From assembly GCA_023459795.1 (NCBI GenBank), contig JAEWSP010000018.1:30946-94945 (forward strand): a DNA stretch of 64,000 bases, in the 5' to 3' direction. Of this stretch, positions 7,830 to 39,559 are shown piece by piece. Numbering within the stretch: position 1 is the stretch's first letter; each line of letters begins with the position of its first letter. The position numbers were made by a program, and so were the translations under genes. The notes beneath the pieces are model-generated. The model did not search any database and was not told where the DNA came from. It worked only from the letters and a program-made list of their open reading frames with translations. This DNA comes from Bacillota bacterium. GTDB taxonomy: Bacteria > Bacillota_I > Bacilli_A > RFN20 > CAG-288.

Positions 7830-8207
7830 ATGAGAACCGACTTCACGAAGATCTCCTTCTGGAAAAGGAATCCGGACAATGTTGCGGATATCCTGAGGCT
7901 GGAGATCGAATGCCTCGTCGACAAGACTTACCTTCTGAACGTAAACGGAAAAGACCGTTCCCTTCCCAAAGAGGAAGGAGACAAGCTTATAGAAGGTCTT
8001 ATTGCTCTGAAGCTGGGCGAGACGAAGAAGGAAGAGAAAGCCTACCTATACGAAGACAGGCCTCAGGACTACCGGATCAAGTTCTTCCTGGTCTTCTCCT
8101 ATCCGGAAGCCACTTATCTAGCCGTAAAGGGAATCGATCCCTTCGGCCAGAAGAACTACAAGGAGATCCAGGCTCTCTTTGCTCCGCTGTTCAAGAAACA
8201 AGACTGA
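7830..8207 (+). CDS. Hypothetical protein (125 aa)
   Basis: Its ATG abuts the TAG of the previous gene. No recognisable domain. Confidence 0.45.
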   Translation: MRTDFTKISFWKRNPDNVADILRLEIECLVDKTYLLNVNGKDRSLPKEEGDKLIEGLIALKLGETKKEEKAYLYEDRPQDYRIKFFLVFSYPEATYLAVKGIDPFGQKNYKEIQALFAPLFKKQD

Positions 8208-8209
8208 AA

Positions 8210-8240
8210 GAGGAAGCCCCCAGAAGGCTTCCTCTTTTTC
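8210..8240 (+). terminator. Rho-independent terminator
   Basis: Hairpin GAGGAAGCC-cccaga-a-GGCTTCCTC followed by TTTTTC. A second hairpin CCCGG...CTTGATT-caac-AATCAAG...CCGGG lies at 8243-8285. Confidence 0.55.
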
Positions 8241-8344
8241 AAGGCATTAAAAAGAGCCCGGTTACTTGATTCAACAATCAAGGCCGGGCCCTAACGTATC
8301 TGACCCATGGGTTGTTCCATATCTTGCCGCCCCTTCACCGCGGT

Positions 8345-8565
8345 TTCCGAATCATCCCGGATCGTATCGCGGTCCCTTCTCGTATCGCCATATTTGCTCA
8401 TATCTCAGTCCCGAACCGTATCGCCGTATCTTAACGAATCGCCTTACCTGATCGTACCTCCGTATCGAATCATATCGCCGTACCTTATCGAATCGCCTCG
8501 TAGAATCTAACCGTATCGCCATCCCTTAACGTATCGCCGTATCGAATCGTACCTCCGTCTCTGCT
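8345..8565. repeat. Irregular array of short CG-containing motifs (CGTATCG(CC), CGAATCG(CC), CGTACCT; at least 14 copies) inside an 820-bp non-coding CpG-rich stretch
   Basis: Motifs were counted directly in the sequence. No long ORF with protein-like translation spans this region (track ORFs read SPYL-type repeats). Further partial repeats CTCGTCTTGCCTC (x2) and CTCGAAGCGAC (x2) occur at 8676-8950. Confidence 0.5.
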
Positions 8566-9059
8566 CATATCGTTGACTCGGCTAGTAACGGAACGTTGTC
8601 TCAAACCGTTTCGTACCGCCGTACCTTCTTGGCGAAACACCTTGCGTCCCGGACTTCGAGAAACTAAGACTCACTCATTGACTCGTCTTGCCTCGAAGCG
8701 ACGTAGCTCGTTCCGTCTTTCCGGTTCCACTCATCCGGAACCTTTCCGTATCTAAACAGTGCACTGGCTACTCGAAGACTGACCGGCTCGTCTTGCCTCC
8801 CGGATTTGTATCTCTGACCTTCTTCCCGTATTGCAGAGAAGACCTAAACCAGAGTGGGGATAACGCCTTTAGTCCCAGGAGAGCCGAAACAGCTAGCCTT
8901 CCCTTACCTGCTCGGATGGGTACCCGACGAAATAACATAGTCTCGAAGCGACTATATCATGGCCAATGATATACATATTGAGAGTATCCGACAAAAGGAG
9001 GAGATTATTGCATCCCTTCTAGAAATTTATAGATATTTGACTTCTAATAGGTTAACGAA

Positions 9060-9326
9060 TTAGAAGCTGTACTCAGAAGCTAACTTCTTGAAGCCGGCAA
9101 CTGCCAGATCTTCATCTGCTCCGTCGCAAACAATCTTGAGGGATTCCCCCTGGCTGATCGTCGAGATGGCGAAGACATTCATGATAGACTTGAGATCGCA
9201 CTCGTCACCATTCTCAAGAACCATCTTGATGTTGCACTTATGATGATTTGCTTCCTCTACCAGCTCTGCACTAGAGCGAGAAGAGAGACCATTCATGGCA
9301 TTCACTTTGATTTCGAATGTTTTCAT
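9060..9326 (-). CDS. HPr-family phosphocarrier paralog lacking the active-site His15 (Crh-like), 88 aa
   Basis: It aligns to HPr/Crh. GLSSRSSA occupies the place of GIHARPA, so His15 is replaced by Ser while Arg17 is kept. The KSIMNV segment retains the regulatory Ser46 context. No SD precedes the ATG. Confidence 0.75.
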   Translation of the reverse strand: MKTFEIKVNAMNGLSSRSSAELVEEANHHKCNIKMVLENGDECDLKSIMNVFAISTISQGESLKIVCDGADEDLAVAGFKKLASEYSF

Positions 9327-9350
9327 AGGTTTATATCTTTCTGCACCTTT

Positions 9351-9379
9351 ATTATAGAGAATTTGGTAAGCGTTTACAA
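9351..9379 (-). promoter_or_regulatory. Sigma70-type promoter for the HPr-like gene (-35 TTGTAA, 17 nt, -10 TATAAT on minus strand)
   Basis: Hexamers with ideal spacing. The predicted leader of about 18 nt has no SD. Confidence 0.4.
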
Positions 9380-9763
9380 GTGAGGCGGGAAATTTAAGGT
9401 TTTTCTGTGCGTCTTAGCGTAACTGAAGGGTGGCTAACTTCAGGAAGCGCCCATCCAGTCTTTTGGCTTAGAGAGCTCTTCTTAGCTATTATAAGCTATT
9501 AATTACTTTTTGCGGTCATTTCTTTTTCTTTTTTTGCGTATTCTGACATTTTCTTTTTCTTATCGGTTCGTTCCTCATCTTTCCCCTTTCATTCTTAGGT
9601 CGTTTCTGCATGCCTTTTATATCCCCTTTCTTCTTCTTTTTGGTTGCAAATCCAATCAAAAGCCGTCATTTTCGCTGCTTCTATTTTCGTAGCGGATTAA
9701 TGCCTGTCGAAACAAAGCCTAAAGAGTTATCATATAAAGGCAAACGAAGGAGCTATTCCCCCA

Positions 9764-10948
9764 ATGGATGAAACAGCGAATAAGCCGGAAGAGAAGAAAC
9801 AGATAGTAATGAACGCAATGCGTCCGACAGGAAAGCTCCATATCGGGCACTATGTCAGTGCATTAAGACTTACCCTGGAACTCCAGAATTCCGGAAAATA
9901 CGACGAAATCTATGAGATGATTGCCGATACCCAGGCCTTGACAGATAACTTCGGCGTTCCCCAGAAAGTCCGGGACAACGTAATCGAAGTCGCCCTCGAC
10001 TATCTTTCCGCCGGTCTTGATCCGAACAAGACCACCATCTTCATCCAGTCCCAGGTCCCGGAACTTACGGAACTTACCTGCTACTATCTCGATCTGGTCA
10101 CTCTTTCCCGTCTGGAGAGGAATCCGACCGTCAAGTCGGAACTTGCCCAGAAGGATTTCGGTGATACCATCCCGGCCGGATTCCTCTGCTACCCGGTCAG
10201 CCAGGCTGCAGATATCACGGCATTCGATACGGATCTGGTTCCGGTCGGAGAAGACCAGGCTCCGATGATCGAACAGGCGAATGAAATCGTCCATAAGTTC
10301 AATTCCCTTTACGGAAAAGGAAAAGAAATCCTTCATCCCTGCAAGATCCTTCTACCGGAGAACAAGGCTTCCTTACGCCTTCCCGGCACGGACGGAAAGG
10401 CTAAGATGAGCAAATCCATCGGGAACTGCATCTATCTTAGCGATGACAAAAGAACCGTTGACAAGAAGGTCTCCACCATGTTCACGGATCCTACCCATCT
10501 CAACATCACCGACCCCGGCCATACGGAGAACAACCCGGTCTTCATTTATCTCTCCGCTTTTGCTACCGATGAATCCTTTAAGAAATACTGGCCGGAATAT
10601 AAGAACCTGGACGAACTCAAGAAAGCCTATGAGAAGGGCGGACTCGGAGATGTACCGGTCAAGAAGTTCCTGGCCTCGGTACTTAACGAAGTCCTGGATC
10701 CGATCCGGGAGAAGAGAAAGTACTACGAAGCCCACATCGAGGATGTCTACAAGATCCTGGAAGTCGGTTCCAAGAAAGCAGAGGAGAAGGCTCTTGCTAC
10801 GGTCTACCGCGTCCGGAGAGCACTCGGCGTCAACTTCTTCCATGATCCGAAGCTGATCGAAAAGCAGTCGAAAGCCTATCGCAAGAAGCTTGCCGACGAT
10901 GCGGCAAGAGAAGAATACCTTGCCAAGCAGAAAGCCGGCCAGAAGTAG
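9764..10948 (+). CDS. trpS: Tryptophan--tRNA ligase (class I aaRS), 394 aa with KE-rich C-terminal extension
   Basis: HIGH-type motif (GKLHIGHY) and KMSKS motif are present. The ADTQALT segment resembles TrpRS. RBS GAAGGAG. The C-terminal 50 aa or so are Lys/Glu/Ala-rich. Confidence 0.7.
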   Translation: MDETANKPEEKKQIVMNAMRPTGKLHIGHYVSALRLTLELQNSGKYDEIYEMIADTQALTDNFGVPQKVRDNVIEVALDYLSAGLDPNKTTIFIQSQVPELTELTCYYLDLVTLSRLERNPTVKSELAQKDFGDTIPAGFLCYPVSQAADITAFDTDLVPVGEDQAPMIEQANEIVHKFNSLYGKGKEILHPCKILLPENKASLRLPGTDGKAKMSKSIGNCIYLSDDKRTVDKKVSTMFTDPTHLNITDPGHTENNPVFIYLSAFATDESFKKYWPEYKNLDELKKAYEKGGLGDVPVKKFLASVLNEVLDPIREKRKYYEAHIEDVYKILEVGSKKAEEKALATVYRVRRALGVNFFHDPKLIEKQSKAYRKKLADDAAREEYLAKQKAGQK

Positions 10949-11119: not shown

Positions 11120-12830
11120 ATGAACAAGAACAACGGGCGCCGTCTAATGGCCTTCCTCAACGACCATCTTGCCAAAGTAGGGAAAAAGTATCTCTCCGTC
11201 TTCGATGCCTTCGGAAAAGAGCCGGAGAGAATCAGCGAGAAGACGCTTCTTTCCATCGTGAAGAAGAACAGGAATACGGAATTCGGAAGGAAGCACCATC
11301 TCGACCAGATCCATTCCCTTTCCGACTACCGGAAGGAAGTCCCTGTTTCGGACTACGAAGACTATAGGGAAGCAATCCTTAGGATGCAGGACGGGGGAAA
11401 GGATGTCCTCTTCCAGGGAAAACCGGTCTACTATACGGATACTTCCGGATCGACGGGGAAGAGCAAACGGATTCCTATCTCTGCTACCCAGCAGAAGGCA
11501 ATGAAGAAGAAGAAAGGAAATCCTCAGATCATCCCCTATCTGGAGAAGAAGAACGGATGCTATGACAGGAACCACCGGAAGATCCTCGCCCTGATGGCGA
11601 ATGCCGACATCACCTATACGAAGGACCAAACCCCGATCGGGGATGTCGTCTCCCTGATGCTTTCCAAGGTCAGCGGATTGATGGGGCTCTTCTTTACCAC
11701 CCTTTGGCAAGCCTCACCTCGAACGAGATCCATGACCGCCTCTATGTCCACCTTCTCTTCGCGCTTCCGGAAACGGACATCTATCTCATCATGAGTGCCT
11801 ATCTCAGCGAAACCTGCGGAATGGTGAACTATCTCTTCCAGAACCAGGAACTCTGCTCCATGATCTTGCAGAAGGGAAAATATCGGACTGCGTAAAGCTT
11901 TCCCCCGCCCTAAAGAAGGAACTTGAAAAGAAGCTTGTCCCGCACCCGGAAAGGGCTGAGGAACTAAAAGAAATCCTGGCTTCCGGAAGAGACGGGATCC
12001 TGACCAGGATCTGGCCTAGCCTCACCGTCGTAAGCGGGGTCGGCAGTACAGAGAACAGGCTGCGCCCGTATACGCTTCTTGTAAAAAGGTATCTAGGAAG
12101 CAAAGGACATATTTATTATGCCGCCTATAATTCCTCGGAATCCTTGATGGGGCTGGCAACGGACTACGACACCTTCCTCTATGCACCGGTCCTGGATATG
12201 GCTTATCTGGAATTCCTTCCCCTCGATGAGAAGGAACAGCCGATCCCGGGGAAGATCCTTTCCGTATCCGAGCTTACGGACGGGGCAAAGTACGAGACTG
12301 TCCTGACCAGCCTCTCCGGTCTCTATCGTTATAGGATGGCAGACATCGTCAAGGTCAGCGGACGGAAAGGAAGGCTTCCTCTATTCGAAATCCTAGGACG
12401 GAACAAGGTCCTCCTCGATGTCATGGGAGAGAAATGCACCTTCCATCAGGCAGATGACGCGATTGCCCTCCTAGGAGAAAAGATCGGGGAGAAGGAACAT
12501 CCCATCTATGCCTACTGTGCCACGGAAGGGAATAAGGAAAACCGGTATACCTTCTTCCTGGAAATCAAGGATTCCTCTTCCCTGGATCCGAAGAAGACTT
12601 CTCTCCTTCTGAAGGATTCCCTAGCCCTTGCTTCCCCGGATATCCGGTATGCTTTCGAGGAGGAAGGGCTCCTTCCTCCCGAAGTCTTCTTCGTGAAGGA
12701 AGGGACTTTCCAAAAATACCTCCACAATGAGAACCGGGAAGGAGAAGAAACAAAGCACTCCATCAAGGAGATCAAAGTCCTGAGGACCGAAGAGCAGAAG
12801 AAGTTCTTCAGGGATCATATCGAAGGATAG
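11120..12830 (+). pseudogene. GH3-family (acyl-acid amido synthetase / auxin-responsive GH3-like) gene disrupted by two frameshifts
   Basis: The N-terminal part in frame 2 carries YYTDTSGSTGKSKRIP. The middle part is in frame 1 (SNEIHDRLYVHLLFAL). The C-terminal part in frame 0 carries IWPSL..VVSGV, YYAAYNSSES and GLYRYRMADIV. Shifts map to a G4 run (11683-11686) and an A4 run (11877-11880). Confidence 0.6.
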
Positions 12831-13929: not shown

Positions 13930-14111
13930 GTTTTTTCCTCTGTTAAAAGACCATTATAGCAAAGAAGAGCAACGGAAATGAGGTTGCCCTTGCCCCTCCC
14001 TTTTTGTATAATAGATTCACCATCGCGGTGTATACCGTCGAACTTGGTCAGGACCGGAAGGTAGCAGCCATAAGATCGGTGTCCACGTGCGGTGGCTTTT
14101 TTATTAAAAGA

Positions 14112-39483: not shown

Positions 39484-39559
39484 GGATCTTTAGCTCAGTT
39501 GGTAGAGCAACTGACCCTTAATCAGTGGGCCAAGGGTTCGAGTCCCTTAAGATCCACCA
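39484..39559 (+). tRNA. tRNA-Lys (anticodon CTT), 76 nt with encoded CCA
   Basis: Cloverleaf: acceptor GGATCTT/AAGATCC; D-arm GCTC-AGTTGGTA-GAGC; anticodon stem ACTGA/TCAGT with loop CCCTTAA; T-arm AAGGG-TTCGAGT-CCCTT; 3' ACCA. Position 33 is C, which is atypical. Confidence 0.8.

Follow-up and report, generated by a model that had tools for sequence, protein, structure and literature searches.

In Bacillus subtilis and its relatives, the protein Crh shares the fold of HPr, the phosphocarrier of the phosphoenolpyruvate:sugar phosphotransferase system (PTS), and lacks its phospho-accepting His15; it is a paralog that stands beside a functional HPr, Enzyme I (EI) and PTS. Another arrangement is found in alpha-proteobacteria such as Brucella and in Treponema denticola, where permease-less modules of HprK and HPr or NPr keep HPr and HprK for regulation without PTS transport (PMC2937029). 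Here we describe an HPr-family gene from an uncultured member of the Bacilli (order RFN20, family CAG-288), found in a stretch of 64,000 nucleotides (hereafter the window; assembly GCA_023459795.1, contig JAEWSP010000018.1, positions 30,946 to 94,945 of the forward strand). Its product has Ser in place of His15 and is apparently a convergent, Crh-like, PTS-free HPr, and the gene is linked across many species to a downstream element that is best described as a candidate non-coding RNA. The gene is placed as follows:

9060..9326, minus strand: HPr-family gene with an ATG start, encoding 88 aa, with Ser15 instead of His15 and with Arg17 and Ser47 (in DLKSIMNVF) kept

The product of this gene, MKTFEIKVNAMNGLSSRSSAELVEEANHHKCNIKMVLENGDECDLKSIMNVFAISTISQGESLKIVCDGADEDLAVAGFKKLASEYSF, matches the Pfam PTS-HPr family PF00381 (E=2.7e-15, 56.6 bits, cutoff 23) and the NCBIfam model TIGR01003 (51.9 bits, above the cutoff of 47.9). 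Its AlphaFold2 model, computed with 35 family sequences, reaches a mean predicted local distance difference test (pLDDT) score of 95.3 and shows the beta-alpha-beta-beta-alpha-beta-alpha order; Foldseek superposes it on solved HPr structures with template modelling (TM) scores of 0.85-0.88 and root-mean-square deviations of 1.1-1.7 Å, and complexes of HPr with glycogen phosphorylase and with Rsd are among the closest structures. Together these results identify the product as a genuine member of the HPr family with a confidently predicted HPr fold; an earlier note on this DNA, made from its letters alone, had aligned it to HPr over its whole length. The residues that the same note had singled out were confirmed by alignment with B. 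subtilis HPr, E. coli HPr and Crh. Position 15 is Ser, whose codon TCT would need two changes to specify His; Arg17 is kept, and the equivalent of Ser46 is Ser47 within DLKSIMNVF, the shift being caused by a one-residue insertion in the loop between strands beta2 and beta3. Helix 1 further departs from canonical HPr by Ala16Ser, Pro18Ser and Thr20Ala. Residue 15 of this protein cannot carry phosphate in the normal way and, with Ser or Thr at this position across the clade, the predicted loss of normal PTS phosphotransfer through it holds.

A profile search placed the HPr of Mycoplasma capricolum (1PCH, E=3.6e-13) closest among solved structures, with Crh chains ranking lower. Orthology with Crh was rejected, since the equivalog model for Crh, NF010354, gives 42.3 bits where 123 are required, Crh falls below HPr in this search, and the gene context is different. 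Identity with NPr (PtsO) was likewise not upheld: the NPr structure 5T17 is the weakest PDB match (E=6e-4), and neither rpoN nor ptsN occurs in the 64-kb window.

The protein belongs to a well-conserved family. Its identical sequence occurs in 40 blocks of a public assembly collection and was examined on 22 contigs, and a word-indexed search returned 79 homologues with 50-80% identity, nearly all of 88 aa. These derive from metagenome-assembled genomes labelled 'Bacilli bacterium', representing uncultured, RFN20/CAG-288-like Bacilli of the gut and rumen. A scan of GTDB species representatives yielded 47 loci, including Candidatus Enterosoma and UBA7642; the two names denote the same genus, assigned to order RFN20 and family CAG-288 in GTDB (PMC8035907). 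Thr occupies position 15 in 39 of 40 sequences (codons ACC, ACT and ACA), and Ser (TCT) is found there only in the window's species. The earlier note had allowed for a corrected sequence that restores His15, and this can be set aside, as His is absent from the whole clade.

Thirty columns are invariant in an alignment of 35 family sequences, and they cluster at residues 13-29 and 43-53, stretches with little or no variation that correspond to the canonical partner-contacting face of HPr; R17, K46, S47, I48, M49, N50, V51 and F52 are all among them. Synonymous variation is nevertheless present, with Arg17 specified by five different codons and Ser47 by four, and the ratio of non-synonymous to synonymous substitution rates (dN/dS) is ~0.06-0.15 for pairs with unsaturated dS. 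Measured in this way, the Thr15 homologues are under strong purifying selection. In a HMMER scan of 1.84 billion cluster representatives, the next-closest relatives also lack His15 (GL-T/S/G/N/I-S-R) and keep KSIMNV, and such further relatives bear only the automatic name 'HPr family phosphocarrier protein'. A wider set of His15-less proteins from uncultured Bacilli (P0080-P0130) has Thr, Ser, Gly, Asn, Ile, Met or Gln at position 15, usually followed by Ser16-Arg17, and KSIMNV in all members.

Three features precede the gene and bear on its expression:

9351..9379, minus strand: sigma-A-type promoter of the HPr-like gene (-35 TTGTAA at 9379-9374, 17-nt spacer, -10 TATAAT at 9356-9351)
9365..9378, minus strand: putative cre-type (CcpA/LacI-family) operator TGTAAACGCTTACC, matching the consensus at 13 of 14 positions and covering five of the six -35 bases
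9337..9342, minus strand: weak Shine-Dalgarno-like AGAAAG, located 10 nt upstream of the ATG, with AAGGA or AGAGGA as its counterpart in relatives

The promoter, TTGTAA-17-TATAAT, matches its consensus at 10 of 12 positions, in keeping with the promoter that the earlier note had assigned to the gene, and the same architecture is conserved in an alignment of the 90 nt before the gene in 48 loci. In the same alignment, 14 conserved positions, typically TGTAATCGCTTACA, cover the -35 box and correspond to a catabolite-responsive element (cre), for which the consensus TGWAANCGNTNWCA was used. Across the 47 GTDB species loci, the orthologous site is perfect (14/14) in 30 and has at most one mismatch in 41, and in relatives its start invariably falls 44-52 nt before the ATG. 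The background is low: no perfect site was found at 791,279 positions on the plus strand in the rest of the loci, and three on the other strand, and the site at 9365-9378 is the only plausible cre in the window. Conservation of this kind suggests that the HPr-like gene is probably controlled by a CcpA-type regulator, and in Firmicutes such a regulator is activated by P-Ser-HPr and P-Ser-Crh. By the example of B. subtilis CcpA, a cre located over the -35 box should mediate repression, so that negative autoregulation of the HPr-like gene is predicted and the sign of regulation at its promoter would be repression. A second perfect cre, TGTAAGCGGTTTCA, lies in a related genome (L059, 2547-2560) between tpi and a 1222-aa gene and hints at a cre regulon that may extend beyond the HPr-like gene. 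The mRNA leader is ~18-24 nt long; it had been described as devoid of a Shine-Dalgarno sequence, a description that the weak AGAAAG and its purine-rich counterparts in relatives qualify.

The kinase expected to act on Ser47 was located in the same lineage. A Thr15 HPr-like gene of the sister clade lies 7 kb from hprK (PF02603 and PF07475), in the order hprK-lgt-uvrA, and with this sister-clade kinase as query HprK homologues of 365-379 aa were recovered. One of them, P0359, lies at ~21.3-22.4 kb of the 49-kb contig CAYRUQ010000008.1, which also carries a 65%-identical member of the HPr-like family (L016) at ~5.3-5.6 kb. Of the four datasets shown for the exact protein of the window, three also contain a second homologue, P0354 (ERZ27249489, JGI 3300042975 and JGI 3300014206), the co-occurrence in JGI 3300042975 involving contigs Ga0455831_104 and Ga0455831_193. 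The lineage's HprK keeps the Walker A motif (GQSGIGKSE) and the EVRGIGIID signature, and its gene heads an hprK-lgt-trxB-whiA operon that adjoins gapA-pgk-tpi or uvrA. A genome without HprK, as the earlier note had considered, is therefore, as far as testable, not what is seen. These kinases (L059, L061, L063-L072) extend ~60 residues beyond the usual 310, with a low-complexity C-terminal tail.

Other partners gave a different picture. Signature regular expressions and tblastn with B. subtilis queries detected no hprK, ccpA or ptsI in the window or the first 54 loci; as a positive control, the HprK query detects the lineage kinase at 34-36% identity. The window and ~1 Mb of related loci yielded neither ptsI nor a second HPr gene. 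Of the partner genes that the earlier note had named, hprK was thus found, whereas ptsI and ccpA were not. Among genomes of 'gut lineage 2' (RFN20), ptsI is reported in 0 of 21 and PTS Enzyme II genes in ~0 of 21 (PMC7301438 supplement, KEGG table), as read from the PTS-pathway rows of that table, in which the ptsH row uses an uninformative KEGG orthology identifier. From these published RFN20 tables we infer that EI is absent from the window's genome. Because ptsI is missing from all 21, the HPr-like protein is more likely to be the only HPr, and it is probably the lineage's sole HPr rather than a paralog; the earlier note's term 'paralog' is unproven and probably wrong.

The DNA beyond the stop codon contains a second conserved entity, made up of the following features:

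9041..9066, minus strand: hairpin holding the stop codon (CUUCUAAU...AUUAGAAG), with a folding energy of -8.3 kcal/mol and no U-run
8949..8973, minus strand: conserved 25-nt box TATATCATTGGCCATGATATAGTCG, an inverted repeat with a right arm that can be read as an extended -10 (TGnTATAGT)
8292..8948, minus strand: purine-rich repeat body of the candidate RNA, with an 18-nt-period tandem array at 8355-8562
8249..8291, minus strand: 3' terminator hairpin GGGCCCGG..CUUGAUU-GUUG-AAUCAAG..CCGGGCUC (hairpin 8291-8254) followed by UUUUU, with an invariant apical AUU-GUUG-AAU
8207..8237, plus strand: terminator hairpin of the convergent 125-aa gene (7830-8207), marking the far edge of the RNA locus

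As it has no U-run, the hairpin at the stop codon is not an intrinsic terminator, and no intrinsic terminator was found between the HPr-like gene and the 25-nt box. In several, though not all, relatives (L001, L003, L010, L015, L026 and L030) the last codons and the stop take part in a comparable hairpin by pairing with a complement further downstream, and these hairpins might affect the 3' end of the mRNA or read-through into the RNA element. The box itself follows the stop codon by 20-117 nt in ~34 of 47 species, and in a metagenome scan with a DNA pattern the HPr-like gene was directly upstream in all nine contigs that contain it. Substitutions in its arms are uncompensated and its loop is variable in length, which speaks against an RNA hairpin, and the right arm always keeps TGnTAT. 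The uncompensated changes make the box look like a DNA-level signal, and it is a probable promoter or operator of the downstream RNA, its left arm being left unexplained.

Downstream of the box, Tandem Repeats Finder detects 7.8 copies of a repeat with period 18 in the window. Across 14 species the bodies, which range from ~140 to 750 nt in length, are enriched 14-fold in GAGACG and GAUACG and 23-fold in GAAGGGA, with GGGAUG also enriched, and in many species, the window not included, a single CCCUUUCU box lies near the 5' end of the RNA. The minimum free energy of the body is no better than that of shuffled sequences on either strand (z = +0.6), by which a highly structured, 'ornate' RNA was ruled out. 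A protein-coding repeat gene (RRYDxx hexapeptides in an open reading frame at 8352-8522) was also discarded, as no open reading frame is conserved across species, and TRAP-like or CsrA-like repeats were judged less likely, periodicity and motif content fitting them poorly. Rfam returned no gathering-level match and, at E<=10, only chance-level microRNA and snoRNA hits, both for three versions of the element (from the window, L010 and L018) and for seven loci taken whole. The 3' terminator shows compensatory changes at 10 of 13 pairs in 18 aligned species, and in ~0.97 Mb of related DNA the ATTGTTGAAT hairpin occurs nowhere but at this element.

The stretch 8249-8973 on the minus strand is, on these sequence features, best described as a candidate non-coding RNA that also forms the long 3' untranslated region (UTR) of the HPr-like gene. 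Equivalents are present in L001, L005, L008-L032, L039, L041, L052 and L073-L081, and the element, which would represent a previously undescribed candidate non-coding RNA family, is the most novel item in the locus. The distant Thr15 HPr-like genes in L040, L042-L047, L055 and L057 have the same residue pattern and no RNA element, which indicates that the loss of His15 predates the RNA or is independent of it. The flanks had been described earlier as non-coding over 820 and about 440 bp; no open reading frame is indeed conserved in them, but the lengths are 852 nt downstream (8208-9059) and 437 nt upstream (9327-9763), and the downstream flank holds the candidate RNA or 3' UTR.

On balance, we lean slightly towards the reading that this gene encodes the lineage's own HPr, reduced to a Ser-phosphorylated regulator through which HprK/P would act on a CcpA-type repressor at cre sites, including the one in its own promoter. 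Its observed foundation consists of the family, the fold, the residue pattern, purifying selection, the conserved cre and the presence of hprK in the same genomes or datasets. RFN20/CAG-288-like Bacilli would have lost EI and the PTS permeases, a step taken from the literature and extended to the window's genome, and His15 has been replaced by Thr, or by Ser in the window's species, either residue still being able to cap helix 1. The surface facing HprK/P and CcpA (Arg17, helix 1 and Ser47-Ile-Met-Asn-Val-Phe) has been retained. HprK/P, produced from the separate hprK-lgt-trxB-whiA operon, would by analogy phosphorylate Ser47 at high glycolytic flux, and the resulting P-Ser-HPr would be the co-effector of a CcpA-type repressor of the LacI family bound at cre sites. 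With a cre over its own -35 box, the protein would repress its own synthesis and, with no terminator before the RNA element, read-through would bring part of the RNA's expression under the same control. The Crh-like role as CcpA co-effector suggested in the earlier note is thereby favoured by the conserved cre and by hprK on a related contig and in shared datasets, but the protein itself is not a member of the Crh family.

Several points weigh against this reading. Searches of the window and of ~1 Mb of related loci turned up neither ccpA nor any other gene of the LacI family, and many LacI-family proteins bind CG-centred palindromes of this kind, so that a regulator other than CcpA is conceivable; the cre of the window deviates from the consensus at one position. 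What connects hprK with the genome of the window is co-occurrence in datasets, not a shared contig, and the 21 RFN20 genomes, at ~30% GC, may represent families other than that of the window's organism, at 47.6% GC. The replacements Ala16Ser, Pro18Ser and Thr20Ala raise the possibility that the set of partners has changed, and a purely regulatory HPr leaves the strict linkage to the downstream RNA unexplained.

A regulator of the P-Ser-HPr type might also act on targets other than CcpA, the cre-like site then being bound by a different LacI-family repressor, which we regard as unlikely although deserving of serious attention. Such targets would include inducer exclusion at ABC sugar transporters, GapA, MgsA and glycogen phosphorylase, as for HPr and Crh elsewhere. 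The presence of HprK, the proximity of hprK to gapA-pgk-tpi, an interaction face that is conserved yet different from that of canonical HPr, the HPr complexes with glycogen phosphorylase and Rsd among the closest structures, and the failure to locate ccpA in the loci searched are all compatible with it, whereas the perfect cre in 30 species sits on the HPr-like gene itself, as a CcpA/HPr feedback loop predicts; the two roles are, besides, not mutually exclusive. More improbable is that position 15 has become a new phospho-acceptor, with Thr or Ser modified by a Hanks-type Ser/Thr kinase or by HprK to give a stable phosphoester signal, an idea that we find highly doubtful. The hydroxyl is always present in the clade (39 Thr and one Ser, from ACC, ACT, ACA and TCT) and the loop is unusually rich in Ser and Thr (TSRSS), but wider His15-less relatives also have Gly, Asn, Ile, Met or Gln there, and nothing points to a kinase. 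Thr and Ser are, moreover, good helix N-cap residues and could fill the structural role that His15 has in HPr.

Another proposal is that protein and adjacent RNA form one module, in which the HPr-like protein, or a partner under its control, would be bound or sequestered by the RNA, or the RNA would be the gene's long regulatory 3' UTR, and the loss of His15 would reflect a new, RNA-linked role. The position of the box 20-117 nt past the stop in ~34 of 47 species, with the gene upstream in nine of nine box contigs, the shared strand without an intervening intrinsic terminator, and the many short repeats with little global structure, as in protein-sequestering RNAs, speak for such a module. It nonetheless seems improbable: the distant Thr15 proteins keep the same residue pattern without the RNA, conserved synteny alone could account for the linkage, the conserved cre and hprK already suffice for a classical explanation, and we know of no HPr-family protein that binds RNA. 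In its most specific form, which we would call a long shot, the His15-less HPr and the 140-750-nt RNA would be two halves of a catabolite-signalling module of a new kind, the RNA being made both from its own box and by cre-controlled read-through and titrating or scaffolding P-Ser-HPr or a partner. Through such a two-part module, a gut lineage with a reduced genome and no PTS would couple the sensing of glycolytic flux by HprK to control at the post-transcriptional level. Next to no credence, finally, can be given to a decaying remnant of a lost PTS or to an assembly or sequencing artefact. The absence of EI and permeases from the lineage and the missing catalytic His would fit with decay, but conservation refutes it: dN/dS is low (~0.06-0.15), the length is steady at 88 aa, 30 columns are invariant in 35 sequences, the promoter, cre and Shine-Dalgarno-like element are conserved, and the protein is modelled with high confidence. 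Sequencing error is ruled out by Thr15 across the clade and by the repeated occurrence of the identical protein (40 assembly blocks, 22 contigs examined).

The gene lies in a housekeeping region near dnaA and dnaN, from the presence of which the window is taken to adjoin the replication origin. The following neighbours were recorded:

9764..10948, plus strand: trpS, the divergent neighbour (PF00579), whose own promoter and leader fill the rest of the 437-nt gap
14017-14101, plus strand: small signal recognition particle (SRP) RNA
39484-39559, plus strand: tRNA-Lys(CTT)
59744-62677, plus strand: dnaA-dnaN

The upstream flank is ordinary, variable intergenic DNA, and no open reading frame in it is conserved in relatives. 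The trpS leader (9500-9763, plus strand) is ~260 nt long, has a strong excess of pyrimidines and contains two CCCCUUUC boxes. No T-box was detected ahead of trpS, and the idea that the leader is a conserved partner of the candidate RNA was dismissed, as its composition is not conserved in other species. In many related species, including L002, L004, L008, L015, L023 and L030, trpS and the HPr-like gene are separated by a galU-like gene (~295 aa, with a UTP-glucose-1-phosphate uridylyltransferase motif) that is divergent from the latter; the window has none at this position. In L051, which belongs to the window's species (trpS 99.7% identical), a 356-aa gene is inserted there (8660-9730); it has a CxxC...CxxC zinc-ribbon N-terminus, resembles insertion sequence (IS) transposases and has no Pfam match on record. 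We take it to be IS1595-like.

Elsewhere in the window, the SRP RNA overlaps the 5' end of the called tadA open reading frame, whose start is probably later. A GH3-family gene (11120-12830, plus strand) is split into two open reading frames (224 and 228 aa) with an out-of-frame gap; it is intact in L050 (560 aa) and split as well in L048 and L049, and represents a frameshift or pseudogene in the window's strain. In 28 housekeeping genes of the window CGA is almost unused (0.5 per 1000), while CGG and AGG are common (7.3 and 9.8 per 1000). Parts of RFN20 are reported to have reassigned AGG and CGG (PMC8629427), and AGG-to-Met recoding is reported for part of genus UBA7642. Such recoding was discarded here, as AGG and ATG occur in the window at frequencies that look standard and no AGG codon is present in the HPr gene; judged from these frequencies, codon usage in the window looks standard.

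The locus offers an apparent natural case of an HPr hub stripped to its serine branch, in which EI, permeases and His15 seem to be gone and HprK/P, the Ser46 surface and cre are kept. Because Crh never occurs without HPr, the regulatory and transport roles of HPr are more cleanly separated here than in the Crh system, and the locus provides an entry point to carbon catabolite control in the abundant uncultured Bacilli of gut and rumen (RFN20/CAG-288). The residue pattern GL-T/S-S-R-S-S, the one-residue insertion and NVF could be used to annotate regulatory HPr proteins as such rather than as 'phosphocarrier', and the linked repeat-rich RNA adds a candidate family with a clear genomic anchor.

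Compared with described RNAs, the element resembles sequestering RNAs of the CsrB/RsmZ type in its many short purine repeats and little global structure, but its commonest repeats, GAGACG and GAUACG, lack the GGA core of CsrA sites. It shares with 3' UTR-derived small RNAs a terminator in common with the upstream mRNA and a promoter-like box of its own, and with the C-rich-box small RNAs of Firmicutes (RsaE/RoxS) the single CCCUUUCU box near the 5' end in many species. Its length range, and the lack of an Rfam family and of a known partner protein, set it apart from known small RNAs.

The permease-less modules of Brucella and T. denticola differ from the present system in that they keep EI (or EI-Ntr) and the His15 relay, whereas here apparently only the Ser branch is left. 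Canonical HPr (PtsH; 1PCH of M. capricolum) has the same length and fold, a near-identical LKSIMNV and Arg17; in the HPr-like protein His15, Ala16, Pro18 and Thr20 are replaced, one residue is inserted before Ser46, and no ptsI adjoins the gene. With Crh it has in common the HPr fold, the missing phospho-accepting His15, Arg17 and a Ser46 site in a KSIM context, as well as HprK/P in the genome and, by analogy, an expected role as CcpA co-effector. Crh, in contrast, has Gln15 where the window's clade has Thr and the window Ser, and it is accompanied by EI, which is apparently absent here, where the protein is probably the only HPr. Crh also belongs to a yvcI-yvcJ-yvcK-yvcL(whiA)-crh operon, whereas the HPr-like gene is monocistronic or followed by the RNA element; its neighbours are trpS (or galU) and that element, and whiA lies elsewhere, after hprK-lgt-trxB, which bears out the earlier remark that the gene is not in a yvcI-L-like operon. 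The score of the Crh model, the context and the difference in EI together indicate that the loss of His15 is convergent with that in Crh.

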